Shown here: positions 1-26,505 of the stretch, in pieces
How the letters are laid out: each line of letters begins with the position of its first letter
Position numbering within the stretch: position 1 is the first letter of the stretch
Source of the DNA: Antedon mediterranea
Taxonomy: Eukaryota; Animalia; Echinodermata
DNA length: 64,000 nucleotides
Assembly (NCBI RefSeq): GCF_964355755.1
Contig: NC_092680.1
Coordinates: forward strand, 20,655,045 to 20,719,044
Direction: 5' to 3'
The notes under the pieces: generated by a model
Told to the model about the DNA's origin: nothing
What the model saw: only the letters and a program-made list of their open reading frames with translations
Database searches by the model: none
Position numbers and translations under genes: made by a program

Positions 1-16
1 GTTATTCCAACAAATT

Positions 17-2143: not shown

Positions 2144-2145
2144 AC

Positions 2146-2572: not shown

Positions 2573-3015
2573 TGTTACGTGTGACGAGAGTCAGGTGTCA
2601 CATGTCACATGCAAATGAATCAAGTCGCCGGTGGTCAAGTGGACGAATCAGAATGGAGCATGGTGGTGCGCGGTATTTTGGAAAGCTGTGCTGGGTGTGG
2701 GATACAAAAAAGGGAGTCACTCAGGAGACAGGGCCAGCTAAGGACGCTTGCGGTTAGAACTGTGCTTGAGACTGGAAGCGAGGCAGGACGATAAGAATGG
2801 GGAGGTTGTGATGTGTACAGATGGCCAGGCAAACCAACCACTCGGTATCATACGTATCTATAATTGTGTTGTTATGTATTTTGTGCTTCGTGAAAGGAAA
2901 TAAATGGAGCTCGTGCTCTTTGCATAATACTCTGAGTGTCGACTATTGTTTGTTCCAAGCCTCGTTGTTGCTATTTATTTAGGTATTTCGGCCTAGGCCA
3001 AAAGTGGTCGTAACA
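2573..3015 (+). repeat. 3' LTR (443 bp)
   Basis: Starts TGTTACG and ends CGTAACA (7-bp terminal inverted repeat), directly after the PPT; AATAAA near 2899. Confidence 0.9.
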
Positions 3016-3059: not shown

Positions 3060-5644
3060 CTTAGCTTGCAATGACAATGATGCACCATGCTGTTGTATGA
3101 GGAATTCCACTATTTCCAAGGTACAATGTTCATAACACAGATATGAATGAAGTGGAGTGTCTCCCTCCTTGATGAATAAAATCATAATTATAAGTTCAAT
3201 ATATTGATAACAGCTATATAAGTAATTGATAAGTGCTAAATAGACAACCAATAAATGTATAGCAAAACACATCTCATCACAAATGGTAAAGTATACTGTG
3301 TGTTCTAAAATATTTTGCAGCTAAATTCATTATAATTTACATCATTGTCTACCTTTGTTACAGTATCTTTACATAGTAATTTATGCAATCTTATGAATAA
3401 TTGTTATACCTATAGTCCAGTAAAAATATGGTTGAACATAGAACAAATTGCAACAGAATTTTTTTTTGTTTTATTTGGTTGATATGGTGAACATGAACAT
3501 CATATCCAAAGTTTACCAAAATCGGACATCGGGAAGTGGGTTAATTAGCATAAATTCAAAATGGCCGCCATTTGCTATTTTAAAGCCCCATATCTCCTTA
3601 ACGGTTGGATTTAGACCACCTATATGCATTACGAGTAGATATAAATGTGATATTAAACATTCTAACTGGCATATTTAAATTTCCATAGGACGTACCTATG
3701 ACGTCATATGGTAGTTGTGACGTCATAAATTATGTTATAAATGCTTAAATGACATTATACTATGCGAACAATTTAGAAACTGCAGAAAAACAAGTTTCCT
3801 AACATTCTCCTTGTTGAAATGAACATAATTTCCAAAGTTTACCAAAATCGGACGTCAGGAAGTGTGTTAATTAGCATAAATTAAAAATGGCCGCTATTTA
3901 CTATATCATTTTGAAGCCCTATATCTCCTTAATGGTGGTTTTAGACCACCAAAGTGCATTGCGAGTAGATATAAATGTGACATTAAACTTCCCAATTAGC
4001 ACATTTAAATTACCATATGACGTAAATATGACGTCATAAGGTAGTTGTGACGTCATATATTATGTTATAACTGCTTAAATGGCATTATCCCATGCTAAAA
4101 AATTTAGAAACTGCAGGAAAACAATTTTCTAACAATTTCCTGTTGAAATGAACATGATATCCTAAGTTCACCAAAATCAGACTTCAAGAGGGTCAATTAG
4201 CATAAATTCAAAATACCATTTTGAAGCCCTGTATCTCCTTAGCGGTTGGGTTTAGACAGCCTATGTGCATTACGAGTAGATATACATGTAAAAACCATTG
4301 AAATTTATCATTAAGTTTCCATTTACAAAATCTTATGAAAATAGATATTCTACAGAACCGTATGAAAGGTGATCATCAACTGTATTTCCGAAACTGATTT
4401 GTACTCAAGCGCACATCTTGTTTTGTGTTTTCTAAAACTACATCTTTTAGAACTTTATCTCTTTAAATTGGTAAAGGAATAAAAAAAATATTGTAATGAG
4501 GCGATTGATTGTGGATCAGGCTATTCAAACCCATCATTCCCACTAACTCATCTCAATTGAAATGAAAATGATAAATGTCATACTGTAGTTTTCTGTATAG
4601 TCAGCATCTCCATTCTGCTCTTTCAAATTTGCTATTTCATTGCATCTGTTTGGTGTCGATCATTTATGAGACAACAACTTTTTATGATGTTTTATATAAT
4701 GTTTATCTTTTGAATGCTGTTTCCACGATTCAATGAGCATATAACAAGGACACTTCATCCTAGTGTTAACTAGGGTGAAGAACCATCAGTTAAAAGATAC
4801 ACATCAACGGAATCCAAAAAGGGGTTGTTAAGGTAATACAGTAATTTTCAAACTTGCCACTACTAATTACAGTATTTTATTTTTCGACAAGACAGTATTC
4901 AACTTCCTTGACAAAAAATGTCAGAAAAATGGAATAGAAACTTTGAATGCAGATGGGGATCTATTAAATATCTTACTTTGCCTTAATTAAAAAAAGCGAT
5001 TGCGTTTTAAGTTAAGACAGAAGAAGCAAAAAATAGTGGAATAATTGGTACTTAAAGAAAACATCTTAAGGAGCAAATTTGCAACATCTTTGTAATGCTC
5101 TGCACTTGCAAAGAAACAGGGGGATGCATTCTATTCTAAGCAAGAACTGTTTGGTCCAAAATTTAAAAAGACATCAGAAAAGCCAATGAAGTAGACTTGC
5201 TGTGCCTACATGTATGGTGGAAGTATTTTGACGGCGCCAACATTACATTTTCTATGTATGTACTTTGGATTGGAAACTTACTGTGATCCAACTCCATATT
5301 TAGGATGGGGTCGAATTATTAAATCCCAGACTCATTACTTAATTAAGAATCCTATTTCTTTAAATATATATGAGATATATGAGATATATATGCAGTTATA
5401 AAAAGTTGCAGTTGCAGAAAATTAACTGGAATGTTCTATTGCATGTTGTGAAGAGTGGCCGAATAACTTCTGATACCCTTCAATTCAAATATTCTTTATT
5501 CATCCTCTATCATGAAAATATACAACAACAATATATGAGAACATAAAAAAGATGAAAAGGAAACACATAAAAACTCAAAAGAGCTTGATTAGTTGTGTCC
5601 CCCTATGTCCCTAACTAGCCTAAAAAACTAAAACATAAATAATA

Positions 5645-5687
<43 letters not shown>

Positions 5688-8600
5688 AATCCTGCAACAA
5701 GTATAATTTTTAAAATTATTTGTAAAATGATAATAAATGTTCTTTAAACAATGATTTAAATATATATATTGATTTGGTACTTTGTAGTTCGTAATTCAAG
5801 TCATTCCACAATTTGGGTCCCACACATGACACAGTAAAACTAGTAGAAGTACGATTACGTTTTCTGAGTCTCATTTTGTCTTTAGATCTTGTATTATAAT
5901 TATGGTAAGAACCATTTTTAATAAAGAGCGATGAAAAACGCACGTCCTGATTAGTAGTAACATTATACATGAAAAGCCCAATTTGGTACTTATTGATATC
6001 CGCAATTTTAAGAAGTTTAAATTTATAGAAACATTCAGTCATTGAATCATTAAACTTTGACCATGTTATAGCTCGTAATGCCCTTTTCTGGAGTTTAAAT
6101 AACTCATCTAAATAACTTGGAAATGTGCTACACCATATTATGTTGCAATAATTTAATACTGGTTCAATGAGTGATTTGTATATTGTCCAGAGAGCATAGG
6201 TTGGTAAAAAATGTCTTACTTTATATAGTATGCCTACATATCGAGATATTTTCCTAGCTGTAACATTGATGTGGTTCTTATATGTGAGAAATTCATCAAT
6301 ATGTACTCCAAGGAATTTAGTCGATTTAACTCTATCTATTCTTTTATTGTTGACATAAATATTTACATTCTCTAAATTACTTGGATTTCGCTGATTGCGG
6401 AAAATTATGTAATTAGTTTTTTTAACGTTGATTGATAGTTTATTGCACATGAACCAATCCGAAACATTTTTTAGTTCACCATTAACTAGTTCTATGAGCG
6501 TATCCAAGTTTTCGTGAGATGCAGATATGTTTGTGTCGTCAGCAAATAAAACAAAAGATAACGAGTTTGAGCAATTAAATACATCGTTAATGTACAAAAT
6601 AAAAAGTAGAGGCCCCAGAATTGAACCCTGTGGTACACCGCAATTTATATCCATCAAACACGAACTTGTGTTATCAATAGACGTAAATTGTTTCCTTCCA
6701 CTAATATAGTTTCTAAACCATTTAAGGGCCGTGCCTCTTATGCCATAGTGTTCCAATTTTTTAAGAAGTATATCATGGTTGATGGTGTCAAACGCTTTTG
6801 ACAAATCAATAAATATTCCGATGGTATTTTTTTTCTTATCAAGCGCATCGGTTATTCGTTCAACCAGATCTATAACGGCCATAAAAGTAGAACTGTTTTT
6901 TCTGAAACCATATTGTGCATTATTAAGGATGTTAAACTTTGTGATATAATTATTTACTCTAATTTGAACAATTTTTTCAAGAATTTTTGAAGCGGTAGGC
7001 AGAATAGAGATCGGCCTATAATTACTGACGTCACTTTTATTGCCAGATTTAAAAATTGGAACTACTCTAGCTACTTTCATACTATCAGGGACCATGCCTG
7101 TCTCAAGAGAGAGGTTAAAGATATGTACAAGAGGAGATGCCACAGCAGCAATAATATGTTTTAGAATGCGATTACTTAAGTTATCAACACCTTCTGAATT
7201 TGAATTTTTGATTTGACTAACTATTTCAATGACCTCTTCTTCATTCGTAGGATTGAAAAATATGGATTGGGATTGACTCTCTTTCATATATTGTTTAAAG
7301 TCAGAATTGTTTACATTTGGTATTTTGTTTGCTAATTCATTTCCAATGTTGGAGAAGAAGTCATTAAAAGCGTCAGACATACCTTTTGGATCACATACCA
7401 AAGTTTTATTACTATGGTTAATTACCTCATTTGGCTTAACACTCGATTTTTTTCTATTTAGAACTTCATTTAAAACTTTCCATGTTTGCTTTGAATCGTG
7501 TCGAGCTGCATCCAGTTTTTTGGAATAATATTGTTTTTTCCGAATTCTAATTAAATGAGTTAATTTATTTTTGTACTTTTTATATATATTTTTTAATAAT
7601 TGTGTTGGGTTTTTAAGGTATTTTTTATAAAGTTTATTTTTCTTTTTTATTGAAATCAAAATTCCTGTTGTGATCCATGGTTTTTTCTTTGTATTACCAT
7701 TTGGCTTATTACTTTTTGTAGGTATGTTATTATCTATGAGATTGGATAGTTTTTTAATAAATAGGTTATATGATGTATTGGTATCTGTGCATAAATATAG
7801 TTCACCCCAATCCTCATTAGAAATAGCAATAAGCAAGTTATTTAATGTTGTATCATTAATTATTTTTTGTTTTGTAATTGGAGCTTGTGTGTTAGTATTT
7901 AATGACAAGTGTGTTGTCATGAAAATGGGTAGATGATCGGTAATGTCAGTGACTATTACTCCACAATGCGAAATGTTATCATCATTTGTAATAATATTAT
8001 CTAAAATTGTAGCAGAAGACGATGTTATTCTCGTGGGTAAGTTGATTAATGGATTAAAAGATGTTGAGTAAATAATGTTTGTGAATTCCTGTGTTGTTTT
8101 TTGAATGTCATATTTTAATAAGTCTTGATTAAAATCTCCTAAGATATAGCAGTTTTTGTTTTCGCGATTAAGTTTATGTAAGATTTCTTCCAGATCAGAG
8201 TTAAATGAGTTGACGTTTGAATTTGGTGGTCGATACAACATACCTACAATAGTATTTTTGCCGTTTGTGTTTATTATTTCTAGAAAAAGTGAATCAATGG
8301 AGTTATCATTAAATACAAAATCATCACGTGTTACGGTGTTGATTTGTTCTTTTAAATATAGACAAACTCCACCACCGACTCTACCTTCTCTATTACAAGT
8401 GTACATATTGTATCCATTGATATTTAATAAGTCAATTGGCGTGTTCTTATTTATCCAGGTTTCCGAGAAACCAAGTACATCAAACGCACGACCTATGGTA
8501 TCTAACATAATGCTAATTTCGTCGAAGTGTTTTGGAAGACTACGTGCATCCATTACCCATGATCTTAACCTGGATGTGGTAAATGTTGTACTATTTTCAT

Positions 8601-11600
8601 GAGATTAAAAACATTTTTTCCTTTCGGTTTCTATATTTTCCCCTTAGAATAATGCCAATTGTCATTATTGTGACAAAATACATGACGTCATATGTCTTAT
8701 GACATCATAGGTACGTTATATGGCAATTTAAATATGCTAATTATAAAGTTTAATATCACATTTATATCTACTCTCAATGCACTTAGGTGGTCTAAAACCA
8801 AGCGTTAAGGAGATATGGAGCTTCAAAATGGTATGATAAATAGCGGCCATTTTGAATGTATGCTAATTAACCCACTTCCTGACGTCCGATTTTGGAAATA
8901 ATGTTCATTTTAACAAGGAGAATGTCAAGAAACATGTTTTCTTGCAGTTCCTAAATTGTTCGAATAGTATAATGTCATTTAAACAGTTATAACATAATAT
9001 ATGACGTCACAACTACCATATGACGTCATAATTACGTCATATGGAAATATAAATATGCTAATTAGAATGTTTAATATCACATTTATATCTACTCGTAATG
9101 CACCTAGGTGGTCTAAATCCAACCGTTAGAGAGATATGAGGCTTCAAAATAGCAAATGGCGGCCATTTTGAAATTATGCTAATTAACCCACTTCCCGATG
9201 TCCGATTTTGGTAAACTTTGGATATGATATTCATTTGAACCATATTTACCAGACAAAACAAAAAAAAATTCTGTTGCAATTTGTTCTAGGTTCACCCTAT
9301 TTTTTACTTATCTTTACTGGACTACTAGTACTAGTCGTGAAAATAATTTCATTTTGAAATGAGTAAATTATTTCTTTTTTGTTAATCCAATACAAGAAAA
9401 CAAATAAGTATGTAATATAAGTATGTGTAAATGTGTGTATGTACTGTCATACAGTAATTGTGTATTATTGTAAATAAAACAATTACCTTATTTTGCAATG
9501 ACAATGATGCACCATGCTGTTGTATGAGGAATTCCACTATTTCCAAGGTACACAATCGATTTCCCACATACAAATGAAGTGGAGTGTCTCCATCCTTGAT
9601 AAACAAAATCATAATCATAAGTTCAATAATATTGATAACAGCTATATAAGTAATTGATAAGTGCTAAATAGACAACCAATAAATGTATAGAAAAACACAT
9701 CTCATCACAGATGGTAAAGTATACAGAGTGTATTCTCTTGCAACTTAATCCTGTAGTAAATTTGTTGCAGTTAAGTTCATTATAATTTACGTCATTGTCT
9801 ACCTTTGTTACAGTATCTTTACATAGTAATTTATACAATCTTATGAATTTTTATACCTATAGTCTTGAAAATAATTTCATTTTGAAATGAGTAAATTATT
9901 TCTTTTTTGTTAATCCAATACAAGAAAACAAATAAGTATGTAATAAGTATGTGTAAATGTGTGTATGTATAGTGTCATACAGTAATTGTGTATTATTGTA
10001 AATAAAACAATTACCTTATTTTGCAATGACAATGATGCCCCATGCTGTTGTATGAGGAATTTCACTATTTCCAAGGTACAATATATATTTTTCACATGCA
10101 AATGAAGTGGAGTGTCTCCATCCTTGATGAACAAAATCATAATCATAAGTTCAATAATATTGATAACAGCTATATAAGTAATTGATAAGTGCTAAATAGA
10201 CAACCAATAAATGTATAGCAAAACACATCTCATCACAAATGGTAAAGTATACTGTGTGTATTCTCTTGCAACTTAATCCTGTAGTAAATTTGTTGCAGTT
10301 AAGTTCATTATAATTTACATCATTGTCTACCTTTGTTACAGTATCTTTACATAGTAATTTATGCAATCTTATGAATTTTTATACCTATAGTCTTGAAAAT
10401 AATTTCATTTTGAAATGAGTAAATTATTTCTTTTTTGTTAATCCAATACAAGAAAACAAATAAGTATGTAATAAGTATGTGTAAATGTGTGTATGTACTG
10501 TCATACAGTAATTGTGTATTATTGTAAATAAAACAATTACCTTATTTTGCAATGACAATGATGCCCCATGGTGTTGTATGAGGACTTTCACTATTTCCAA
10601 GGTACAATGTTGATAACGCAGGTACAAATGAAGTGGAGTGTTTCCATCCTTGATGAACAAAATCATAATCGTAAGTTCAATAATATTGATAACAGCTATA
10701 TAAGTAATTGATAAGTGCTAAATAGACAACCAATAAATGTATAGCAAAACACATCTCATCACAGATGGTAAAGTATGCTGTGTGTATTCTCTTGCAACTT
10801 AATCCTGTAGTAAATTTGTTGCAGTTAAGTTCATTATAATTTACATCATTGTCTACCTTTGTTACAGTATCTTTACATGGTAATTTATGCTATCTTCTGA
10901 ATCGTTACACCTCGTCTTTAAAATAATTTCATTTTGAAAAGAGTAAATTATTTCTTTTTCGATCCAATATAAGAAAACAAAAAATTACCTTATTTTGCAA
11001 TGACAATGATTCCCCATGCTGTTGTATGAGGACTTTCACTATTTCTGAGGTAGGGTTATATCTACTACTCACATACAAATGAAGTGGAGTGTTTCCATCC
11101 TTGATGAATAAAACCATAATCATAAGTTCAATAATATGATAACAGCTATATAAGTAATTGATAAGTGCTAAATAGACAACCAATAAATGCATAGCAAAAC
11201 ACATCTCATCACAAATGGTAAAGTATGCTGTGTGTATTCTCTTGCAACTTAATCCTGTAGTAAATTTTTATTTATTTTTTTTTTTTAACCATATTTAATG
11301 AGGGTGATCCATCCAGCTGTTGCTGATCATTAGGGACCCTCAGAGGTTCACAAGACAAACATATACACAAGATGCTCTACATAAACAAAGTCTTATACAA
11401 GTCTTTGGGAGTGGGGTAATTTGGTCCTTAGAAAAAATCCTGACATGTGACGGGACTTAAACCCAGGACCATTGGAGTGGTAGACAAGCATCATAACCAC
11501 CAAGCCACAACTCCACTGTTGCAGTTTAAGTTCATTATAATTTACATCATTGTCTACCTTTGTTACAGTATCTTTACATAGTAATTTATACAATCTTATG

Positions 11601-14600
11601 AATAATTGTTATACCTAGTCGTGAAAATAATTTCATTTTGAAATGAGTAAATTATTTCTTTTTTGTTAATCCAATACAAGAAAACAAATAAGTATGTAAT
11701 AGGTATGTGTAAATGTGTGTATGTACTGTCATACAGTAATTGTATAATTGTGAAAAAAAATTACCTGATTTTGCAATGATAGTGATTTACCATCGTGTAT
11801 GAAGAATTCCACTATTTCTAAGTTAGGTTCGATATCATACAAGTATATTCGATAATGCAGATAAAAATGAAGTGGAGTGTCTCCATCCTTGATAAACAAA
11901 ATCATAATCATAAGTTCAATAATATTTATAACAGCTATATAAGTAATTGATAAGTGCTAAATAGACAACCAATAAATGTATAGCAAAACACATCTCATCA
12001 CAAATGGTAAAGTATACTGTGTGTATTCTCTTGCAACTTAATCCTGTAGTAAATTTGTTGCAGTTAAGTTCATCATAATTTACATCATTGTCTACCTTTG
12101 TTACAGTATCTTTACATAGTAATTTATACAATCTTATGAATAATTGTTATACCTAGTCGTGAAAATAATTTCATTTTGAAATGAATAAATTATACATATC
12201 TTTTTGTTGATCTATTACAAGAAAAAAAATGTATGTAATAAATGTATGTAAGTTTGTGTATGTACTGTCATAAAGTAATTGTGTATTATTGCAAATAAAC
12301 AATTACCTGATTTTGCAACGACAATGATGCCACATGCTGTTCTATGAGGAATTTCACTATTTCCAAGGTACAATGTTCATTCCACAAATATAAATGAAGT
12401 GGAGTGTTTCCTTCCTTGATGAATAAAATCATAATCATAAGTTCAATAATATTGATAACAGCTATATAAGTAATTGATAAGTGCTAAATAGACAACCAAT
12501 AAATGTATAGCAAAACACATCTTATCACAAATGGTAAAGTATACTGTGTGTACTCTCTTGCAACTTAATCCTGTAGTAATTTTGTTGCAGTTAAGTTCAT
12601 TATAATTTACATCATTGTCTACATTTGTTACAGTATCTTTACATAGTAATTTATGCAATCTTATGAATAATTGTTATACATAGTCTTGAAAATAATTTCA
12701 TTTTGAAATGAGTAAATTATTTCTTTTTTGTTAATCCAATACAAGAAAACCAATAAGTATTTAATAAGTATGTGTAAATGTGTGTATGTACTGTCATACA
12801 GTAATTGTATAATTGTGAAAAAAAATTACCTTATTTTGCAATGATAGTGATTTACCATCATGTACGAGGCATGTCACTATTTCTAAGTTAGGTTCTGGAT
12901 CGTACTTGTAACGCAAATACAAATGAAGTGGAGTGTATCCATCCTTGATGAACAAAATCATAATCATAAGTTTAATATATTGATGCTACATAAAGTAATA
13001 ATTGATAAGTCTTAAATAGACAACCAATAAATGTATAGCAAAACACATCTCATCACAAATGGTAAAGTATACTGTGTGTATTCTCTTGCAACTTAATCCT
13101 GTAGTAAATTTGTTGCAGTTAAGTTCATTATAATTTACTTCATTGTCTACATTTGTTACAGTATCTTTACATAGTAATTTATGCAATCTTATGAATTGTT
13201 ATACTTAGTCTTGAAAATAATTTCATTTTGAAATGAGTAAATTATTTCTTTTTTGTTAATCCAATACAAGAAAACAAATAAGTATGTGTAAATGTGTGTA
13301 TGTACTGTCATACAGTAATTGTGTAATTATTGTAAATAAAACAATTACCTTATTTTGCAATGACAATGATGCACCATGCTGTTGTATGAGGAATTTCACT
13401 ATTTCCAAGGTACAATGTTGATAATACACATACAAATGAAGTGGAGTGTCTCCATCCTTTATAAACAAAATCATAATCATAAGTTCAATAATATTGATAA
13501 CAGCTATATAAGTAATTGATAAATGCTAAATAGACAACCAATAAATGTATAGCAAAACACATCTCATCACAAATGGTAAAGTATACTGTGTGTATTCTCT
13601 TGCAACTTAATCCTGTAGTAAATTTGTTGCAGTTAAATTCATTAATTTACATCATTGTCTACATTTGTTACAGTATCTTTACATAGTAATTTATGCAATC
13701 TTATGAATTGTTATACTTAGTCTTGAAAATAATTTCATTTTGAAATGAGTAAATTATTTCTTTTTTGTTAATCCAATACAAGAAAACCAATAAGTATGTA
13801 ATAAGTATGTGTAAATGTGTGTATGTACTGTCATATCAAGCTGCAGACCTGTTACATGTGGTGTCCCCAAGGGTTCGATTCTGGGCCCACTTCTCTTCAT
13901 AATTTATGCAAATGATTTCAATAATATATCTAATGTCATGTCGTCAATACTGTTTGCGGATGATTCAAGTCTGTTTTATTCACATGATGATCCAGATAGT
14001 CTCTGTGACATCGTTAATCAAGAACTAAAAAAGGTTACTACTTGGATACATGCAAACAAGCTATCACTAAATATGCTAAAAACCAATTTTATGTTGTTTA
14101 GTAACAAATATAGTATGTTACCAAAAGATATTATTTTCAACAATGTTCCTATTAATCAAATAACCAACACAAAATTTCTTGGTATATTTATTGACGACAG
14201 ACTTGACTGGAAAGCTCATGTTAATTACCTTTGCAAATTATTATCAAAAAATGTTGGCATGATGTATAAATTGAAATCAATATTTCCTCAAAAAGTATTA
14301 AATATTTTATATTCTACTCTTATTTTATCGTACTTAAATTATGGTGTTCTTGCTTGGGGAAATGCTTCAAAATCAATTATTACTAAAATTTTATTAATCC
14401 AGAAACGAGCTGTCAGAATTATCTCAGGGGTAACTTTTCGTGCTCACACCCAAGATCTCTTTCAAAAAAATAAAATATTAAAAATTGAGGATCTCTATAG
14501 ATTTAATGTTGGTGTCATCATGTTTCAATTAACCGTCGGACACTTACCACCTATAATATCCAGTAAATTCACTCAAAATAAACAATACCACACTCATCAA

Positions 14601-17600
14601 ACAAGACAAAAAGATCAGTATCACCTGCCATTTACTCGAACTAGACTTAAAATGAATACCCTTGTATATACTGGACCTAAACTCTGGAATTCTCTTCCTT
14701 TATCTCTTAAAAAATCTCATAACTGTGCTTTATTTAAACGTCAATTTAAACTATTATTGGTTGAAGGTTCTTTGTAAATTCTTTTATTATTGACATATTT
14801 GATATTTCTTAAATAATTTATATAATCTATTTAGTTATCCGCACTTGGCGGATAACTCCTTGTGATTGTATGGGATCATCATTTTTTTTTTTTTGGTTAT
14901 CCGCAACTAGTAAGTTGCGGATAACCCTTGTTATTGTAAAAATCTTTTTTTTCATCTTTATTCTTCTTTCTTTCCCAGATTTTTGTTGCAGCTATATCTC
15001 AAATTTTTATAGACATAACTTTTTATAACTTTGTCATAAGATTGACCTGTAGCTGTAGATGTGCAGGAAACTTCATTATATGACGTTAGAGTCGCGCAGC
15101 GTAAGTTACGCGCGATTTTATGAATTTCAACGATTGATCATAGATTATAAACCAAAAGTCATTTTGTATTGACACTTGGTGAAAATTTAAGTCATATCAA
15201 GGGCAAACTTTCTATGGATTAAAAATGGCATGTTTTACAAGAAGTTACGCGCGCACGCGCATTTGAAGTTTCAAAATGCGCAAAATTAATTTCTAACCAA
15301 CTTTCTGCGCTGATCATGACATTTTGAGCATGTCAAAAATTACCGCGCGCGCGAAAATATTTACGCGTATGGTGCGCACGGAGTACGAAAATCATGTTTT
15401 TTTCTCTTGAATTGTAATTTTCCAGCCTTTCCTAGTCATTTTAAAAAAGATTGACATCATTTCAAATTAAAATGACGTCATATGAACACGTTGATTTAGG
15501 CAATTTGCGTGCGTTTTAGTTGCAAAAGTGACAAAATATTGTCAAAATTATGCTTACTTTGAATCTATTATAGCTCCTCAGGATCAACCGTTACCCCCAA
15601 TTTTTTTAATTTAATATGTAAGCAGATATGTTGTAGATATGAATTCATGCAGAATCTTTATCCCTCGGATGTTATGACGTCATCGTATGGCCACACGAAT
15701 GTAAAATATTGGATTTTTGACTGTTTGGCTATTGCTCATTACATTAAATAGAGCGCATATCACTTATACGTATTCCATTTCCCCAGATATTTTAATACTG
15801 TCTAGGTCAATCAACTATATTTCGCATGAGTTAAAAATATTTTAATTTTTATGACGTCATCATTTCTAAAAATGTAAATAACGTGGGTCACCTATTTTCA
15901 TCTTTACAGTAAATTTCAATCTGTTATAGCTCGTCAGGATAAAAAGTGATCATCATGATTAAAACGTTTTCTGGAAGCTATTGGATTGTAGATACAAATT
16001 CATGTGAATATTTTGCCAATCAGATGTTGTGACGTCATCATATGGCCAGTTGAATACAAAAAGTCGTATTTTCATATTTTGCGTCATAGTTCATCACATT
16101 TAAAAGAGCGCGCATCTGTATTTTACGGATTTAAATTTCTTAAAATTTGTATTAATGTAATTATTTAGATAATTATCTTCTAAAATTGTTATCTTTATAG
16201 GTCGATTTGATGACGTCATCGTGTTAATAATTGGATTTAAAAGATGGGTCTCGTAATATCGTCTATGCTACACTGTATATAACATATACAGCATATTCTG
16301 TAAACACTGTAATATGATGTATGCTACAAAATAGGTACAATTCAGCACTGTAAACATATTTATTTCATGTCATAGGATGGAATAATAATTGTCGAGGTTC
16401 ATATGGTTAAGTAGGTGCATGTTGCGTTTGCGCGGATAACCCGAACTCGTCAAAGTGACGAGTTCAAATCTAGTTTTTCTGTATTATTAGTTATCCGCTT
16501 AGTAGCGGATAATTAGTTATCCGCTTAGTAGCGGATAACTTCTTGTAATCGTCCTGTTACTTTTTTTCTTATTTCTTTCTCCTCCATTTTTGTGCCTCAC
16601 GTATCTCAAAAACTTGTAAACATAACATTTCATAACTTTGTCAACATATGGGCATTTACGTGAAGTTGTGCACCTCCTATTTTTGAATGACGTCAGAGTT
16701 GCGCAACGTGACTTACGTGCGATTTTATGATTTTTTATGATTGATCATAGACTAAAAACCAAGCATAAATTTGTTTTGACACTTTGTGAAAATTTAAGTC
16801 ATATCAAGGGCAAACTTTTTGTGGATTAAAAATGCCATGTTTTACAAGACGTTACGCGCGCACGCGCATTTCTCCTCTATTTTTGTATCTCGCGTATCTC
16901 AAAAACGTGTAAACATAACATTTCATAACTTTGTCAACATATGGGCATTCACGTGAAGTTGTGTACCTCCTATTGTGAATGACGTCAGAAATGCGCAACG
17001 TGACTTACGCACGATTTTATGAATTTCGCGTATTTAACATAGATTTAAAACCATATAACAATTTAAATTGAAACTTAGCAAAAGTTTAATTTATATCATG
17101 CGCTAACTTTCTGTGGAAAAAAAATTGCGTGTTTTACACAAAGTTACGCGCGCACGCGCATTTAAAATTCAAAATGCGCAAAATTAATTTTTAATCAACT
17201 TTCTACGCTGATCATGACATTTTGACCATGTCAAAATTTCCCACGCGCGCGAACAATTTTATGCGCGTGGTGCGCACGTAGCGCTAAAAGTATTTTTTTT
17301 TTATTGAATTATGTTTTTCCAGCCTTTTATAGTAATTTTACCAATTTTAAAACAATTTCGACTTACAATTACTTCATACGGGCACGTTGAATTGGATATT
17401 TTACGTGCGTTTTTTATGAAAAAGTTCAAAAATTTGTCAAAATTATGCCTTTTTTTAAACAGTCATAGATTCTAAACAACGAGGTGAACTTTTTTTTAAT
17501 TACATATTCTGGAAGTTGATGAGTTGTAGAAATCGGATCATGAATCAATATGGCTAACCGGACATTGTGACGTCATCGTATTGCCACACGAATGTAAAAT

Positions 17601-20600
17601 ATAGGATTTTTGTCTCTTTCGTTATTGCTCATCATATTCAATGGAGCGCATCACGCCTATCTGTAATCCTTTTTCTCTGAGATTTTAATATTGTCTAGGT
17701 CAATCAACTATCTTACGCATGAGTTAAAAATATTTTAATTTTTATGACGTCATCATGCCTAAAAATTTAAATTACGTGTGGCATAAATTTCATATTTACA
17801 GTAAAATTTAATCTGTTATAGCTCGTAAGAATGAAATGTGATAATCATTATTAAAACGTTTTCTGGAAGCTATTGAATTGTAGATACGAAATCATGTGAA
17901 CATTTTGCTAATCGGATGTTGTGACGTCATCATATGGCCAGTTATATAAAAAAAGTCGTATTTTCATCTTTTGCGTTATAATTAATTACATTTAAAAGAG
18001 CGCACATCAATATTTCACGTATTCAAATTTCTTGTACACGGTAATATGTTGTTGCTGAGATAATTTCCTTCCGAAATTGCTACCTTCGCGTTTCATTTTG
18101 AAACCGTCAGCATGTTAAAAATTGGAATAAATAGCGGGTCCCGTATTTTCCCTTATTCTACACTGTATGTGATTGTGATATGTACAGTATACAGATTATA
18201 CTGTGTATACTATATGACACAAAATAACAGAATTCAGCAATAACAACATAATCATATTCTTCAGTCCAGGTCATAATGCCATAATCTTTTTCCGTGTGCA
18301 ATATTCCAACGTATGACGTGCTCGTGGCGTTTGTCGTGCGGATAACTAACTCGTCAAAGTGACGAGTTTCATGTCTAGTTTTCACTTGTTTTTTTTAGTT
18401 CTAAACATGTTAAACTTGTGTTAGAGAAAAGATATTAGTTTAATTGTTGTTTTTTTGGAGTTTCTAATTGTGTTATATTATTTATATTTTATTTGTTTTG
18501 TTTTGAGGAGCCTATTCACCACAAGCTTTGCTTTCTTTTAGGCTCCTCCACTTTATATTTATATATTTGTAAAGTGAAATAAATAAATGAAATGAAATGA
18601 ATGAAATACAGTAAGTGTATAATTGTGAAAAAAAATTACCTTATTTTGCAATGATAGTGATTTACCATCATGTACGAGGCATGTCACTATTTCTAAGTTA
18701 GGTTCGGTATCATGCAGGTACTTTTCATAACGCAAATACAAATGAAGTGGAGTGTCTCCATCCTTGATGAACAAAATCATAATCATAAGTTTAATATATT
18801 GATGCTACATAAAGTAATAATTGATAAGTCTTAAATAGACAACCAATAAATGTATAGCAAAACACATCTCATCACAAATGGTAAAGTATACTGTGTGTAT
18901 TCTCTTGCAACTTAATCCTGTAGTAAATTTGTTGCAGTTAAGTTCATTATAATTTACTTCATTGTCTACATTTGTTACAGTATCTTTAGATAGTAATTTA
19001 TGCAATCTTATGAATTGTTATACTTAGTCTTGAAAATAATTTCATTTTGAAATGAGTAAATTATTTCTTTTTTGTTAATCCAATACAAGAAAACAAATAA
19101 GTATGTAATAAGTATGTGTAAATGTGTGTATGTCCTGTCATACAGTAATTGTGTAATTATTGTAAATAAAACAATTACCTTATTTTGCAATGACAATGAT
19201 TCCCCATGCTGTTGTATGAAGAATTTCACTATTTCCAAGGTACAATATCTATTACTCACATACAAATGAAGTGGAGTGTTTCCATCCTTTATAAACAAAA
19301 TCATAATCATAAGTTCAATAATATTGATAACAGCTATATAAGTAATTGATAAATGCTAAATAGACAACCAATAAATGTATAGCAAAACACATCTCATCAC
19401 AAATGGTAAAGTATACTGTGTGTACTCTCTTGCAACTTAATCCTGTAGTAATTTTGTTGCAGTTAAGTTCATTATAATTTACATCATTGTCTACATTTGT
19501 TACAGTATCTTTACATAGTAATTTATGCAATCTTATGAATAATTGTTATACCTAGTCTTGAAAATAATTTCATTTTGAAATGAGTAAATTATTTCTTTTT
19601 TGTTAATCCAATACAAGAAAACCAATAAGTATTTAATAAGTATGTGTAAATGTGTGTATGTACTGTCATACAGTAAGTGTATAATTGTGAAAAAAAATTA
19701 CCTTATTTTGCAATGATAGTGATTTACCATCATGTACGAGGCATGTCACTATTTCTAAGGTAGGTTGTGGATAGCTTCTACTCACATACAAATGAAGTGG
19801 AGTGTCTCCATCCTTGATGAACAAAATCATAATCATAAGTTTAATATATTGATGCTACATAAAGTAATAATTGATAAGTCTTAAATAGACAACCAATAAA
19901 TGTATAGCAAAACACATCTCATCACAAATGGTAAAGTATACTGTGTGTATTCTCTTGCAACTTAATCCTGTAGTAAATTTGTTGCAGTTAAGTTCATTAT
20001 AATTTACTTCATTGTCTACATTTGTTACAGTATCTTTACATAGTAATTTATGCAATCTTATGAATTGTTATACTTAGTCGTGAAAATAATTTCATTTTGA
20101 AATGAGTAAATTATTTCTTTTTTGTTAATCCAATACAAGAAAACCAATAAGTATTTAATAAGTATGTGTAAATGTGTGTATGTACTGTCATATCAAGCTG
20201 CAGACCTGTTACATGTGGTGTCCCCAAGGGTTCGATTCTGGGCCCACTTCTCTTCATAATTTATGCAAATGATTTCAATAATATATCTAATGTCATGTCG
20301 TCAATACTGTTTGCGGATGATTCAAGTCTGTTTTATTCACATGATGATCCATCTCTGTGACATCGTTAATCAAGAACTAAAAAAGGTTACTACTTGGATA
20401 CATGCAAACAAGCTATCACTAAATATGCTAAAAACCAATTTTATGTTGTTTAGTAACAAATATAGTATGTTACCAAAAGATATTATTTTCAACAATGTTC
20501 CTATTAATCAAATAACCAACACAAAATTTCTTGGTATATTTATTGACGACAGACTTGACTGGAAAGCTCATGTTAATTACCTTTGCAAATTATTATCAAA

Positions 20601-23600
20601 AAATGTTGGCATGATGTATAAATTGAAATCAATATTTCCTCAAAAAGTATTAAATATTTTATATTCTACTCTTATTTTATCGTACTTAAATTATGGTGTT
20701 CTTGCTTGGGGAAATGCTTCAAAATCAATTATTACTAAAATTTTATTAATCCAGAAACGAGCTGTCAGAATTATCTCAGGGGTAACTTTTCGTGCTCACA
20801 CCCAAGATCTCTTTCAAAAAAATAAAATATTAAAAATTGAGGATCTCTATAGATTTAATGTTGGTGTCATCATGTTTCAATTAACCGCCGGACACTTACC
20901 ACCTATAATATCCAGTAAATTCACTCAAAATAAACAATACCACACTCATCAAACAAGACAAAAAGATCAGTATCACCTGCCATTTACTCGAACTAGACTT
21001 AAAATGAATACCCTTGTATATACTGGACCTAAACTCTGGAATTCTCTTCCTTTATCTCTTAAAAAATCTCATAACTGTGCTTTATTTAAACGTCAATTTA
21101 AACTATTATTGGTTGAAGGTTCTTTGTAAATTCTTTTATTATTGACATATTTGATATTTCTTAAATAATTTATATAATCTATTTTTCACTTGTTTTTTTT
21201 AGTTCTAAACATGTTAAACTTGTGTTAGAGAAAAGATATTAGTTTAATTGTTGTTTTTTTGGAGTTTCTAATTGTGTTATATTATTTATATTTTATTTGT
21301 TTTGTTTTGAGGAGCCTATTCACCACAAGCTTTGCTTTCTTTTAGGCTCCTCCACTTTATATTTATATATTTGTAAAGTGAAATAAATAAATGAAATGAA
21401 ATGAATGAAATACAGTAAGTGTATAATTGTGAAAAAAAATTACCTTATTTTGCAATGATAGTGATTTACCATCATGTACGAGGCATGTCACTATTTCTAA
21501 GTTAGATCCGGTATCATGCAGGTACTTTTCATAACGCAAATACAAATGAAGTGGAGTGTCTCCATCCTTGATGAACAAAATCATAATCATAAGTTTAATA
21601 TATTTATGCTACATAAAGTAATAATTGATAAGTGCTAAATAGACAACCAATAAATGTATAGCAAAACACATCTCATCATAGATGGTAAAGTATGCTGTGT
21701 GTATTCTCTTGCAACTTATTCCTGTAGTAAATTTGTTGCAGTTAAGTTCATTATAATTTACGTCATTGTCTACCTTTGTTACAGTATCTTATAGTAATTT
21801 ATGCAATCTTATGAATTGTTATACTTAGTCGTGAAAATAATTTCATTTTGAAATGAGTAAATTATTTCTTTTTTGTTAATCCAATACAAGAAAACAAATA
21901 AGTATGTAATAAGTATGTGTAAATGTGTGTATGTACTGTCATACAGTAATTGTGTTTTATTGTAAATAAAACAATTACCTGATTTTGCAATGACAATGAT
22001 GCACCATGCTGTTGTATGAGGAATTCCACTATTTCCAAGGTACAATTTATATTTCTCACATACAAATGAAGTGGAGTGTTTCCATCCTTGATAAACAAAA
22101 TCATAATCATAAGTTCAATAATATTGATAACAGCTATATAAGTAATTGATAAGTGCTAAATAGACAACCAATAAATGTATAGCAAAACACATCTCATCAC
22201 AAATGGTAAAGTATGCTGTGTGTATTCTCTTGCAACTTAATCATGTAGTAAATTTGTTGCAGTTAAGTTCATTATAATTTACGTCATTGTCTACCTTTGT
22301 TACAGTATCTTATAGTAATTTATGCAATCTTATGAATTGTTATACTTAGTCGTGAAAATAATTTCATTTTGAAAAGAGTAAATTATTTCTTTTTTGTTAA
22401 TCCAATACAAGAAAACAAATAAGTATGTAATAAGTATGTGTAAATGTGTGTATGTATAGTGTCATACAGTAATTGTGTATTATTGTAAATAAAACAATTA
22501 CCTTATTTTCCAATGACAATGATGCACCATGCTGTTGTATGAGGAATTCCACTGTTTCCAAGGTACAATATCTAATAATCACATACAAATGAAGTGGAGT
22601 GTTTCCATCCTTGATGAATAAAATCATAATAATAAGTTCAATAGATTGATAACAGCTATATAAGTAATTGATAAATGCTAAATAGCCAACAACAAAAAAG
22701 TATGTAATAAAATAATGTATGTAAGTTTGTGTATGTACTGTCATAAAGTAATTGTGTATTATTGTAAATAAAACAATTACCTTATTTTGCAATGACAATG
22801 ATGCCTCATGCTGTTGTATGAGGACTTTCACTATTTCCAAGGTACAATATTGATAACACAGATATGAATGAAGTGGAGTATTTCCATCCTTTATAAACAA
22901 AATCATAATCATAAGTTCAATAATATTTATAAAATCTATATAAGTAATTGATAAGTGCTAAATAGACAACCAATAAATGTATAGCAAAACACATCTCATC
23001 ACAAATGGTAAAGTATACTGTGTGTATTCTCTTGCAACTTAATCCTGTAGTAAATTTGTTGCAGTTATTAGTTTATTATAATTTACATCATTGTCTACCT
23101 TTGTTACAGTATCTTTACATAGTAATTTATGCAATCTTATGAATCGTTATACCTAGTCTTGAAAATAATTTCATTTTGAAATGAGTAAATTATTTCTTTT
23201 TTGTTAATCCAATACAAGAAAACAAATAAGTATGTAATAAGTATGTGTAAATGTGTGTATGTACTGTCATACAGTAATTGTGTATTATTGTAAATAAAAC
23301 AATTACCTTATTTTGCAATGACAATGATGCACCATGCTGTTGTATGAGGAATTCCACTATTTCCAAGGTACAATTTATATTTCTCACATACAAATGAAGT
23401 GGAGTGTTTCCATCCTTGATAAACAAAATCATAATCATAAGTTCAATAATATTGATAACAGCTATAAGTAATTGATAAGTGCTAAATAGACAACCAATAA
23501 ATGTATAGCAAAACACATCTCATCACAAATGGTAAAGTATGCTGTGTGTATTCTCTTGCAACTTATTCCTGTAGTAAATTTGTTGCAGTTAAGTTCATTA

Positions 23601-26505
23601 TAATTTACGTCATTGTCTACCTTTGTTACAGTATCTATATATAAATTTACGTAAGGGCAAAATTCGGTCAATCGCGCCTTACTTCTAGAATTTTTACTCG
23701 ATGGTATATAAAGTTGGTTCGTACTTTCGGTACTGATTTTAACCACCTGATGTTACCCTGTTTACTAATTAAATTAAGTTAGATAATTAGTTATTGACGA
23801 TTAAAACGAATTTAGGTTCAACGATTTGCCCCAAATAGGGGTGTTTTCCGATCGTGGTATACACTGTCTAATGGATGTCCATCTTGAAAAATACCCGCCA
23901 CAAAAATGCGAGGAGGCTTCGCATTTTCCTATCTCCTCCTACGATAATTGTTTTTAATAGCTGAAAACCGGTTGAACAGTTCGAGTACAGCATCATAATG
24001 TTGAAGACAGGCCGATTTTCTTTAAAAAATACTATTTTGATACATTTAATATACGTTTTTACAAATGTATTGATTTGTGATGAATGGAACATTCCAAATT
24101 ATTTGGTTTAACCATACAGGTATAGATTTAGATTTATGGGCCCCCTTGGAGAATAAGCATAAATAGTATTGCAATGCTGTACAATACTGTTAAGGTATTA
24201 ACCACTTTTGATCGCAATTTGAATCGCAAATTTCTTACTGTGAGTGTTGGTACTGTTAGATGTAATATAAAAATATATACAAATAAACTTTATTACTGTG
24301 AGTGTGGGTAGGCCCTACTGTTAGATTATAAACATATAATATACAAATAAACATTCCAAATTATTTGGTTTAACCATAGAGGTATAGATTTAGATTTATG
24401 GGCCCCCTTGGAGAATAAACATAAATAGTATTGCAATGCTGTACAATACTGTTAAGGTATTAACCACTTTTGATCGCAATTTGAATCGCAAATTTCTTAC
24501 TGTGAGTGTTGGTACTGTTAGATGTAATACTGTATAAAAATATATACAAATAAACTTTATTACTGTGAGTGTGGGTAGGCCCTACTGTTAGATTATAAAC
24601 ATATAATATACAAATAAATAAACGTTATTACTGACAGTTGCTTCTCAACGTTTGTATTAATTAATAATTTAAAAATATATAAACGTCGTAGTGGTGTATC
24701 GTTACATGTACTTTACTATTTCAATCGACTATGACAGTGAGAGTTTTAACAAAATACCGTATTAAATCGTAAATGTTTTACTGTATTTAGTGGTATATTA
24801 TTTATAGGCCTATAAAACATTAAAAACAATATTTCGTTACTGAGTGGATAAGAATATATTTTAAAATGTTTCCTCTTTGTACCTATCTTCTTCCCCCATC
24901 TCTCAACCCTTAATGTTACATACAAAACACAAATTGGGTTTGTTTGACTCATTTTGTTTCTCTCTCGGAAGTAATTCCCAGGGTGCTAATTTTGGTTGAC
25001 TACATAAATCATTGTGTATATTTATTCGTTTCTGTAAACGACAATGTATTATAGTCCTGCGGTACGTACATTTGAAATCTCCATTTTTTTCTCGCTGGAA
25101 ATACTGTGTATTCGAGAACCATCTGTGGGCACGACCTAGATGGTACGCGAGCGAAGCGAGCGTGCCATCTAGTCTTATAGTAATTTATGCAATCTTATGA
25201 ATTGTTATACTTAGTCGTGAAAATAATTTCATTTTGAAAAGAGTAAATTATTTCTTTTTTGTTAATCCAATACAAGAAAACAAATAAGTATGTAATAAGT
25301 ATGTGTAAATGTGTGTATGTATAGTGTCATACAGTAATTGTGTATTATTGTAAATAAAACAATTACCTTATTTTGCAATGACAATGATGCACCATGCTGT
25401 TGTATGAGGAATTCCACTGTTTCCAAGGTACAATATCTAATACTAATAATCACATACAAATGAAGTGGAGTGTTTCCATCCTTGATGAATAAAATCATAA
25501 TAATAAGTTCAATAGATTGATAACAGCTATATAAGTAATTGATAAATGCTAAATAGCCAACAACAAAAAAGTATGTAATAAATGTATGTAAGTTTGTGTA
25601 TGTACTGTCATACAGTAATTGTGTATTGTAAATAAAACAATTACCTTATTTTGCAATGACAATGATGCCCCATGCTGTTGTATGAGGAATTTCACTATTT
25701 CCAAGGTACAATATATATTTCTCGCACACAAATGAAGTGGAGTGTTTCCATCCTTGATAAACAAAATTATAATCATAAGTTCAATAATATTAATAACAGC
25801 TATATAAGTAATTGATAAGTGCTAAATAGACAACCAATAAATGTATAGCATAACGTCATTTCACACAAGTGTGTTTTGTAAAAAGGAAACGTTCTCTGTA
25901 AATCTAAACTATGCATAATGTATGATTCTTTTTATATACCTCATCAGTAGTTTTTAAAATATCTGGATGTTTCTTGCAAATTTGTTCAATTGTTTTCAAG
26001 TCCCCATTATGCACAGCTTGTTTCAAATCGTACCTGTCAAAATGCAAGAAATAATGCATTACTGTATTACCAGAGATTTGATGAGAATGATAATAATATT
26101 TATAATTCTTATTTTCAGTGTAACATATGAACATTAATTTAATTTTAATCTTTTAAATAATTATGCTTGGTTACACTTGATTCAGCCAAGGATGTTTTTC
26201 AGGCACAGCCATAAATAAACAATATAGGCCTATAGACACAAAAGAAAACATTAAAAATACTGCTGTATAATAATTTATATTAGTAAACTCATTTCACATT
26301 GTTTTTCAATTATTATGCACGTCAAAGTAACATTTGAGAATGAATCTCATGGTGGATTTAAAATAAAATTTAAAAATCCCATCTTTTCATTTATTTACAT
26401 TTTAATTATTTCTATATTTTTTAATGTTAGCGTATACATCAAATCTTTGCTTGATTTGAAGTAAAAAATAAAAACAACATACCACTGGAACTCAATTGAA
26501 GACAT
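3060..26505 (-). CDS. Gene 2 (3'-partial): multi-exon ankyrin-repeat array protein, probably the N-terminus of a second ANK-ROCO paralog
   Basis: Exon 1 26505-26483 (MSSIEFQW, in-frame TGA 4 codons upstream, phase 2) joins exon 2 26033-25940 (YDLKQAVHNGDLKTIEQICKKHPDILKTTDE). Then 19 AG/GT-bounded phase-0 ankyrin exons: 25645-25752, 25367-25480, 23307-23414, 22781-22888, 22502-22609, 21979-22086, 21444-21566, 19702-19812, 19179-19286, 18640-18762, 13349-13456, 12830-12943, 12307-12414, 11765-11887, 10989-11099, 10541-10648, 10015-10122, 9487-9594, 3060-3167. Each reads (D/E)GxTPLH...EIV...SLSLQNK with no stops. ROCO identity of the missing 3' part is inferred from gene 1. Confidence 0.85.
5481..8553 (-). 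mobile_element. 5'-truncated LINE, ORF2 plus 3' UTR, nested in the TIR element
   Basis: On the minus strand the 3' end reads aataaagaatatttgaattgaa near 5481-5500; no ORF1 is visible upstream of 8553. Confidence 0.8.
5716..8553 (-). CDS. Non-LTR retrotransposon ORF2 (APE endonuclease + reverse transcriptase), CR1/L2-group
   Basis: 945-aa open frame with APE motifs (FSETW, YRPP, GDFN, LDNI, TDHLP) and RT motifs (YRPISIL, DLSKAFD, GVPQGSILGPLLF, FADDT, KFLGV). Confidence 0.95.
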   Translation of the reverse strand: MDARSLPKHFDEISIMLDTIGRAFDVLGFSETWINKNTPIDLLNINGYNMYTCNREGRVGGGVCLYLKEQINTVTRDDFVFNDNSIDSLFLEIINTNGKNTIVGMLYRPPNSNVNSFNSDLEEILHKLNRENKNCYILGDFNQDLLKYDIQKTTQEFTNIIYSTSFNPLINLPTRITSSSATILDNIITNDDNISHCGVIVTDITDHLPIFMTTHLSLNTNTQAPITKQKIINDTTLNNLLIAISNEDWGELYLCTDTNTSYNLFIKKLSNLIDNNIPTKSNKPNGNTKKKPWITTGILISIKKKNKLYKKYLKNPTQLLKNIYKKYKNKLTHLIRIRKKQYYSKKLDAARHDSKQTWKVLNEVLNRKKSSVKPNEVINHSNKTLVCDPKGMSDAFNDFFSNIGNELANKIPNVNNSDFKQYMKESQSQSIFFNPTNEEEVIEIVSQIKNSNSEGVDNLSNRILKHIIAAVASPLVHIFNLSLETGMVPDSMKVARVVPIFKSGNKSDVSNYRPISILPTASKILEKIVQIRVNNYITKFNILNNAQYGFRKNSSTFMAVIDLVERITDALDKKKNTIGIFIDLSKAFDTINHDILLKKLEHYGIRGTALKWFRNYISGRKQFTSIDNTSSCLMDINCGVPQGSILGPLLFILYINDVFNCSNSLSFVLFADDTNISASHENLDTLIELVNGELKNVSDWFMCNKLSINVKKTNYIIFRNQRNPSNLENVNIYVNNKRIDRVKSTKFLGVHIDEFLTYKNHINVTARKISRYVGILYKVRHFLPTYALWTIYKSLIEPVLNYCNIIWCSTFPSYLDELFKLQKRALRAITWSKFNDSMTECFYKFKLLKIADINKYQIGLFMYNVTTNQDVRFSSLFIKNGSYHNYNTRSKDKMRLRKRNRTSTSFTVSCVGPKLWNDLNYELQSTKSIYIFKSLFKEHLLSFYK
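11265..11516 (-). mobile_element. tRNA-derived SINE inserted in a cassette intron
   Basis: Interrupts the cassette motif gtagtaaatt/tgttgcag. The minus-strand head has an A box (TGGCTTGGTGG) and B box (GGTTTAAGTCC); the A-rich tail appears as a T-run at ~11265-11286. Confidence 0.8.
14893..16473 (+). mobile_element. Non-autonomous Helentron/HINE-type rolling-circle element A
   Basis: 5' palindrome gttatccgcaac...gttgcggataac, 3' subterminal gcggataac, hairpin ctcgtca-aag-tgacgag, end TCTAG within a T-run. A further 5'-end fragment sits at ~14832-14890. Confidence 0.75.
16488..18378 (+). mobile_element. Non-autonomous Helentron/HINE-type element B (diverged relative of A)
   Basis: Duplicated 5' palindrome gttatccgct-tagt-agcggataa, the same 3' hairpin and TCTAG end; internal duplication ~16585-16870 vs ~16880-17160; LINE copy 2 shows the empty T-run site. 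Confidence 0.75.
20193..21409 (+). mobile_element. 5'-truncated LINE copy 2 (segmental duplicate of copy 1, without Helentrons)
   Basis: Same truncation point, insertion site and tail as copy 1; a 5-bp deletion near 20351 causes a frameshift. Confidence 0.92.
23634..25172 (+). mobile_element. Non-autonomous Helitron
   Basis: Begins TC, ends CTAG, inserted between A and T of cassette sequence cagta/tcttatag with no TSD; 3' hairpin ctagatggtacgc...gcgtgccatctag; internal ~263-bp tandem duplication (24088-24620). Confidence 0.88.

Follow-up and report, generated by a model that had tools for sequence, protein, structure and literature searches.

Nineteen single-repeat ankyrin exons on the minus strand of a 64,000-nt window (the whole stretch of DNA analysed) from the feather star Antedon mediterranea probably encode the variable recognition domain of a Roco sensor, in which the loop specified by codons 10-14 of each exon has likely been diversified by selection and exchanged by recombination. 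The concentration of change in this patch is very well supported, and its attribution to selection rather than to a mutational hotspot is moderately supported.

Single-repeat ankyrin exons in the window

By scanning both strands for the repeat motif, we found 24 homologous exons, all on the minus strand, with 19 at 3060-25752 (gene 2), one at 57827-57934 and four at 62452-63952 (gene 1). All 24 are in phase 0, have AG and GT ends, are stop-free and encode one ankyrin repeat apiece; the scan demanded splice-like ends, yet discarded no match. Neither blastn nor tblastn revealed further or decayed copies in the window. The exons are 102-123 nt long, every one divisible by three, with a length of 108 nt in 16 of them, and 12 such standard exons lie at 3060-25752. 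Short exon names denote the upper coordinate (e.g. 13456 for exon 13349-13456).

3060..25752, minus strand: single-ankyrin-repeat exon array of gene 2 (19 exons; phase 0, AG..GT, stop-free)
3060-3167, 9487-9594, 10015-10122, 10541-10648, 10989-11099, 11765-11887, 12307-12414, minus strand: gene 2 array exons 1-7, in order of coordinate
12830-12943, 13349-13456, 18640-18762, 19179-19286, 19702-19812, 21444-21566, minus strand: gene 2 array exons 8-13
21979-22086, 22502-22609, 22781-22888, 23307-23414, 25367-25480, 25645-25752, minus strand: gene 2 array exons 14-19
9553..9567, minus strand: the hypervariable patch in one exon, given as an example (codons 10-14, lying 27-41 nt into an exon; between exons of the array its length ranges from 5 to 11 codons)

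Ankyrin repeats are recognised by a G-x-TPLH motif and a helix-loop-helix of about 33 residues, and the array exons agree with both, the helices as read from a paralog's model. Exon 9487-9594 matched Pfam Ank with an E-value of 5e-8 (33.2 bits against a cut-off of 21.1), and one long-loop exon scored 18.5 bits, under the same cut-off. The exons sit in near-identical units of about 530 bp whose introns are homologous too, the shortest intron being 164 nt. Exon length classes differed by multiples of three in 6 out of 6 cases, as opposed to 5 out of 14 intron gaps (p 0.012); constraint on the exons is thus visible in frame conservation rather than in substitutions. A second exon subtype (21566, 19812, 18762, 12943 and 11887), with longer loops, a shorter helix-2 end and flanks of its own, alternates with the standard type, and exons 11887 and 19812 resemble mosaics of the standard and long-loop subtypes. 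Copies of the downstream intron flank with no adjoining exon were seen at 62945-63000 and 58205, which suggests clean loss of a whole exon from the unit.

Gene context and annotation

Upstream of the array, a start exon and a capping exon were predicted from sequence, the splice sites of the latter being read directly.

26483..26505, minus strand: gene 2, predicted first coding exon (23 nt, with ATG and GT donor; phase fitting the cap exon)
25940..26033, minus strand: predicted N-terminal capping-repeat exon of gene 2 (phase 2 to 0; 67.5% identity to XP_071964214.1 residues 1-40)

The capping exon alone gave no Pfam match. Because it matches the beginning of the complete paralog XP_071964214.1 at 67.5% identity and is preceded by a predicted start exon, the array looks like the 5' half of a second gene of gene 1's family. 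The gene runs off the left end of the window, where its Roc-COR half would lie; this link draws on the capping exon and on the layout of gene 1, as follows.

62452-62553, 62720-62827, 63321-63428, 63845-63952 (62452..63952), minus strand: four ankyrin exons of gene 1 (motif scan)
57827..57934, minus strand: last internal ankyrin exon of gene 1 (motif scan)
57370..57457, minus strand: predicted C-terminal capping-repeat exon of gene 1 (66.7% identity to XP_071957837.1 residues 119-148; splice sites read)
56694..56859, minus strand: gene 1 exon with the Roc P-loop (75% identical to the corresponding stretch of XP_071957837.1; missing from RefSeq model XP_071965522.1)
52463..56494, minus strand: remaining Roc and COR exons of gene 1 (tblastn of XP_071965522.1; Pfam Roc E 7e-5, COR-A E 3e-18)
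51519..52091, minus strand: death-effector-domain (DED) pair of gene 1 (in two stretches; Pfam DED E 1.3e-8, with 35.4 bits where the cut-off is 35.9)
50015..50563, minus strand: ZU5 domain exon of gene 1 (Pfam ZU5 E 2e-19)
46156..46719, minus strand: second, weaker DED-like region of gene 1 (Pfam DED E 0.028, under the cut-off)

The ankyrin array of gene 1 may continue beyond the window end. With a Roc GTPase followed by COR in one gene, gene 1 has the arrangement that defines Roco genes. The A. mediterranea RefSeq protein XP_071965522.1 corresponds to its 3' part (1332 out of 1342 residues within exact 10-mers of the window); the model begins after the P-loop exon and leaves out the ankyrin part. 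In this protein COR-A is over the cut-off; Roc reaches 23.4 bits and, for want of the P-loop in the model, stays under its cut-off of 27. Both domains clear their cut-offs in the paralog XP_071964214.1. The P-loop exon on its own gave no Pfam match. No protein kinase family, as in the DAPK and LRRK Roco kinases, was found in XP_071965522.1, XP_071964214.1 or XP_071964198.1, nor was a NACHT or NB-ARC domain, as expected of fungal-type NLRs, found in gene 1 or the paralogs scanned. Downstream of gene 1, at 45136-46120 and 43305-43577 on the minus strand, the exons for the COR end and the DED pair recur as partial extra copies, which suggests that the effector end has undergone internal duplication.

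The full ankyrin-Roc-COR-DED-ZU5 layout is present in gene 1 and in Antedon paralogs, which are located on several sequences, with more distant relatives in Anneissia japonica. The ANK-Roc-COR(-DED) RefSeq proteins of Antedon and Anneissia (XP_071964214.1, XP_071964198.1, XP_071965522.1) are the array's own family, all named 'uncharacterized', and the array is in none of them; as annotated, the Roco paralogs carry roughly 3 to 8 such repeats. Searches spanning 73-2000, 662-2109 and 2110-5000 residues returned no annotated protein containing the array exons among the matches listed, the best 120 of 643 included no Antedon protein above 2109 residues, and a profile search of 50% representatives returned mostly generic ankyrin proteins. 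As the annotation missed the array exons in these searches, the system may be under-reported in existing gene sets. Near-identical repeat arrays were not found in the Anneissia relatives inspected (the first 330 residues of four proteins with ankyrin matches). Repeats of this type, with loops of up to 24 residues, also occur in the Antedon protein XP_071943401.1, which had no Roc match in its listing; the variable-loop repeat hence serves more than one architecture.

Several repetitive elements share the window. An LTR retrotransposon occupies 2-3015 on the plus strand, with a stop-free frame of 713 codons in which the integrase lies upstream of RT and RNase H, the order of Gmr1-like Gypsy elements; its probable LTR (about 2573-3015) is inserted some 45 nt past the donor of exon 3060-3167. 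A LINE with a stop-free endonuclease-RT frame of 962 codons lies inside the array at 5716-8604 on the minus strand. Genes 1 and 2 are separated by a satellite of about 137 copies of a 74-bp unit (32300-42359), and a tandem repeat of about six 69-bp units (26840-27263) is found just upstream of the predicted start of gene 2.

Variability of codons 10-14

Rates and codon tests were based on the 17 standard-loop exons, i.e. 12 from the array and five from gene 1. Seven long-loop exons (25480, 21566, 19812, 18762, 12943, 11887 and 11099) were left out of the codon tests since their loops cannot be aligned codon by codon. In pairwise comparisons of the 17 exons, pN and pS were 0.45 and 0.10 at codons 10-14 and 0.060 and 0.057 in the rest of the exon, with a diversity (pi) of 0.038 in the flanking introns; in the 12 array exons alone the patch gave 0.44 and 0.12, respectively. 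Counted without a tree, at least 19 changes fell on the ten first and second positions of the patch and 3 on its five third positions; the remaining 93 exon sites had a minimum of 29, and 117 intron sites one of 20. Corrected for 32 windows, the excess at first and second positions had a Poisson p of about 1e-12 against the intron and 3e-8 against the other exon sites.

The original prediction was that the variable codons change at positions 1-2 while third positions stay fixed. Codons 10, 12 and 13 indeed invariably read NNG, NNT and NNA, respectively, codon 11 takes exactly nine states where at least nine had been claimed, and codon 14 is CAT, TAT or AAT in 15 of the 17 standard-loop exons, the other two having TTG and AAG. 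The codon states that had been listed all occur, although ATG at codon 10, GGA at codon 13 and AGT at codon 12 appear, as far as standard-loop exons go, only in 62553 or 57934, which belong to gene 1 and lie outside the range for which they had been claimed. Third positions are fixed at codons 10, 12 and 13 but vary at codons 11 and 14, and three fixed third positions are what background divergence leads one to expect (p 0.39-0.60), so the fixation is unremarkable in itself, the emphasis put on it is misplaced, and the signal resides in the excess at positions 1-2. The patch had also been called rich in Tyr, Arg, Asn, His and Trp, as in paratopes. Tyr, Asn, Arg and His make up 42 of the 68 residues at codons 11-14, but Trp only one of 68, in a region of about 30% GC; the likeness to paratopes holds better for position, two codons aligning with variable DARPin positions, than for composition.

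Structurally, the patch was placed by means of an AlphaFold2 model of the paralog XP_071957837.1 (mean pLDDT 60.5, 81-89 over the first repeats). In the 36-residue repeat of this model, helix 1 spans codons 5-11, the loop codons 12-16 and helix 2 codons 17-26, which places the patch at the predicted end of helix 1 and in the length-variable helix1-helix2 loop. DARPin libraries randomise hairpin positions, and these positions barely vary in the Antedon array. The modelled paralog matches DARPin folds with a TM of up to about 0.75 by target length, and when the repeat is aligned to DARPin 6MOL, the two variable residues that follow TPLHLAA correspond to codons 11-12, with extra residues in the Antedon repeat directly after them. 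The same loop is the most variable part, also in length, among 36 repeats of nine other Antedon proteins, reaching 2.4-3.2 bits at its positions 2-5 while the first nine positions of the repeat stay within 0-1.8 bits; some helix 2 positions are variable as well (up to 2.5 bits).

Tests for selection

Site models were run in our own GY94-type implementation, with branch lengths fixed from M0 and rescaled and with naive empirical Bayes posteriors; simulations and tree-free counts served to deal with recombination. Across two trees combined with two frequency models, the likelihood ratio statistic (LRT) was 24.1-33.1 for M7 vs M8, 23.7-32.5 for M8a vs M8 and 23.8-32.4 for M1a vs M2a, M8 assigning 12-21% of the sites an omega of 6.3-8.2. 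Codons 11, 13 and 14 had posteriors of 0.99-1.0 in all four runs. Codon 10 was flagged in two of the four, its posterior being 0.99 with the exon tree and 0.44-0.48 with the flank-inclusive one; codon 12 never exceeded 0.3 and was flagged by M8/M2a in none, and codons 3, 21 and 22 reached intermediate posteriors in some runs. An omega well above 1 had been expected throughout codons 10-14 in the comparison of M7 and M8; this applies to codons 11, 13 and 14 and in part to codon 10, but not to codon 12. Under heavy recombination, 20 of 54 neutral simulations passed the nominal 5% threshold, for which reason the nominal site-model p-values are unreliable. The largest LRT among these simulations was 21.0, and none of the 54 reached the 21.75 observed under the simulation pipeline. 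The tree-free best-window statistic, 19 in the data, never rose above 11 in 1200 neutral simulations with two diversities and four recombination rates. An omega at or below 1 after accounting for recombination would have spoken against the original prediction; the tree-free excess persisted under simulated recombination (0/1200). Together with the omega of 6.3-8.2 and the moderate rejection of a neutral hotspot described below (p 0.0001-0.10 across the tests), this supports diversifying selection, as had been proposed, and makes it the best reading of the patch.

Likely spread of variants between exons

Duplicated blocks of 1-2.6 kb make up parts of the array, and the loops do not follow their flanks. 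The sister units 13456 and 19286 differ at 6 of 15 loop bases but at 7 of 717 intron bases, and 12943 and 19812 at 5 of 21 loop bases but at 7 of 718 intron bases. In two other sister pairs, loop differences amounted to 0 of 15 and 1 of 33 aligned bases, the first pair with a 6-nt insertion. With intron divergence of about 1% and loop divergence of 24-40% between sister units, the loops have likely been moved between copies by conversion, and part of the overall pattern likely stems from such movement of existing loop alleles. The 15-nt patch of exon 13456 is identical to those of 63428 and 63952 in gene 1, and the loop of exon 19286 recurs in XP_071964214.1. For the 17 exons, a PHI-type test was significant whether the loop was excluded (p 0.036) or included (p 0.0018), but it was not significant for the full set of 24 with the loop excluded (p 0.89). 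Two copies of a truncated LINE, at 13836-14830 and 20193-21184 in equivalent intron positions, agree at all but one of 990 bases; they mark a very recent duplication of a segment inside the array or, alternatively, a duplication in the assembly. The pattern of a diversity-generating retroelement was set aside, as changes are not limited to one base and no template repeat was seen.

Splicing of the array

As all exons are in phase 0, any subset of them would splice in frame between the capping repeats, and constitutive use of all 19 is possible. Nothing was seen that would enforce mutual exclusion, with introns of at least 164 nt, uniform phase 0 and, in the part of the locus scanned, no docking pairing that clearly beats shuffled sequence. 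In the part of the locus scanned, comparison of the cap exon with every donor site gave a 23-nt, 74% complementary match that was equalled by 7 of 100 shuffles, and the best duplex between the cap region and an acceptor was equalled by 50 of 100. The Dscam1 gene of arthropods has mutually exclusive clusters of tandem duplicated exons that code for variable binding modules. The Antedon array likewise consists of tandem duplicated exons for variable modules, yet no steric or frame constraint forcing exclusivity was seen, nor, in the part scanned, docking pairing clearly beyond shuffles. In the RefSeq annotation of another gene, a paralog, what sets isoform XP_071957837.1 apart from XP_071957838.1 is a single whole repeat of 36 residues, whose boundaries are those of the array exons.

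Alternative explanations

A conceivable but unlikely explanation is that the patch is a local hotspot of mutation or slippage in an AT-rich, micro-repetitive and structurally tolerant loop, with the copies homogenised elsewhere, so that no selection for diversity is needed. The loop does carry indels, one of them a short tandem duplication (25480 compared to 22609), and omega outside the patch is about 1.1-1.5, i.e. near 1, which makes purifying selection on the framework invisible in substitutions; as noted, recombination inflates the site-model LRTs. In one intron window of 15 columns, nine copies showed 12 changes, where their patches had 16; by eye the intron changes are mostly due to one divergent haplotype that is perhaps partly misaligned. 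Since the neutral simulations assume an even mutation rate, the hotspot was tested separately. A model giving the patch its own rate at omega = 1 fitted worse than one with free omega on both trees, p being 0.0001 with the exon tree and 0.010-0.016 with the flank-inclusive one, and on the latter tree the synonymous rate of the patch was 0.9-1.35 times the background, with an omega of 6.6-8.4. Of a minimum of 22 changes, 3 fell on third positions, for which permuting columns gave p 0.014 and counting parsimony steps over three trees p 0.015-0.045. In a tree-free allele network, 25 steps over 24 links contained 0-2 synonymous ones where 20-24% would be expected (p 0.001-0.10, the conservative form being borderline at 0.04-0.10; 0.02-0.16 in the 12 array exons alone); the alleles of codons 10-13 are joined by single-base steps, only TTG at codon 14 needing two. 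Every length change, furthermore, keeps the frame.

Two further alternatives accept the variability and place its use or its cause elsewhere. The 19 exons could be an orphan or silent library of untranslated donors whose loop variants are gene-converted into expressed Roco paralogs. This is in line with the absence of the array exons from annotated proteins among the matches listed, with the transposons that break the array at several places, with the identical or near-identical loops in other genes and with the approximately 3 to 8 repeats of the annotated paralogs, yet the array has its own predicted start and cap exons with matching phases, all 24 exons are stop-free with intact splice dinucleotides and no decayed copy was found, and selection on donors would need to work through the recipients; we deem such a library improbable. 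It is also rather unlikely, though it fits with real selection, that the driver is something other than pathogens, be it allorecognition, another kind of self/non-self sensing, or a fast-evolving endogenous partner such as a transposon product. The available part of PMC4986451 links the concerted, positively selected ankyrin repeats of fungal NLRs to non-self recognition, but the DED and ZU5 output domains and the lineage-specific multigene family in Antedon fit defence in general.

Comparison with known systems

The closest known system is the LRR exons of brown-algal ROCO genes. As far as the available parts of PMC3341825 and PMC11378527 describe them, these genes in Ectocarpus and Saccharina have one LRR per exon, exon shuffling and four selected sites, with alternative splicing also described (PMC11378527). 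Common to both systems are repeats N-terminal to Roc-COR, one per exon of constant phase, with few positions selected in M7/M8 comparisons, and shuffling; the algal proteins have been proposed as immune receptors (PMC3341825; PMC11378527). The algal exons are 72-nt phase-2 LRR exons with the selected sites on the concave sheet (PMC3341825; PMC11378527), whereas the Antedon system has 102-123-nt phase-0 ankyrin exons, its selected sites fall in a loop of variable length, DED and ZU5 domains come at the C-terminus, and the host is an animal. Constant-phase one-repeat exons were found in 24 out of 24 cases, site-specific diversifying selection in the repeat was found with the caveats of recombination and of the synonymous deficit, and ankyrin takes the place of the 72-nt LRR repeat; the array works like the brown-algal exon-shuffled ROCO group but is not a member of it. 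Given these differences in repeat, exon, domains and host, the two designs most likely arose independently.

Fungal NLR-like STAND proteins (ANK/TPR/WD) offer another parallel. In the available part of PMC4986451, their within-gene ankyrin repeats show above 85% identity, concerted evolution, repeat-number variation and about five selected positions per repeat, the five lying on inner helices and the hairpin, and highly conserved repeats are given as rare in animals (0.8%). The fungal proteins differ in having a NACHT or NB-ARC ATPase instead of Roc-COR, C-terminal repeats, and selection on inner helices as well as the beta-hairpin (PMC4986451), the hairpin positions being nearly invariant in Antedon. 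The DARPin design, outlined in the available part of PMC8229355 as an N-cap, interchangeable internal repeats and a C-cap, resembles the array in its caps and interchangeable repeats, and codons 11-12 align with variable residues of PDB 6MOL. The Antedon repeats are instead natural, have 36 residues rather than 33, and possess a helix1-helix2 loop that is extended by additional residues and varies in length. The available part of PMC8195603 places Roc-COR proteins whose N-terminal LRRs evolve fast in conflict systems, while that of PMC6321704 has nothing on Roco genes. The literature searched contained no description of a Roco array made of ankyrin exons, be it in crinoids or in any other animal, which is weak evidence of absence as subscription papers fall mostly outside its coverage. 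What is new is the exon-per-repeat ankyrin array of a crinoid Roco-DED family, the design itself being known from brown algae and fungi.

Proposed mechanism and implications

Returning to selection on the loop of a recognition domain, unequal crossing-over would copy whole exon units, short conversion tracts would move loop alleles between them, and selection would favour new loop residues and lengths. By analogy with other systems, a ligand bound to the surface that carries the loops would switch the Roc-COR module, which would in turn signal via the DEDs to a defence or cell-death response; it is this analogy that suggests an immune-sensor function for the array protein. More speculatively, and in our estimation rather doubtfully, the locus could amount to a natural DARPin library in a crinoid, with in-frame ankyrin cassettes, antibody-like loops, germ-line conversion, alternative splicing between fixed caps and a Roc-COR/DED death-signalling output. 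If true, such a library would give an invertebrate deuterostome a combinatorial repertoire for immunity inside the cell, convergent with the brown-algal ROCO genes by way of a different repeat.

Beyond LRRK2 and DAPK, Roco proteins have few assigned roles. The helix1-helix2 loop points to a natural route to diversity on the ankyrin scaffold, unlike the usual DARPin design, and the sensor model predicts isoform diversity, high polymorphism between individuals and a ligand specificity set by five to eleven residues per repeat. The locus would be a concrete animal case of the exon-per-repeat, loop-under-selection design proposed for the brown-algal Roco receptors, here with ankyrin repeats and death-effector domains.
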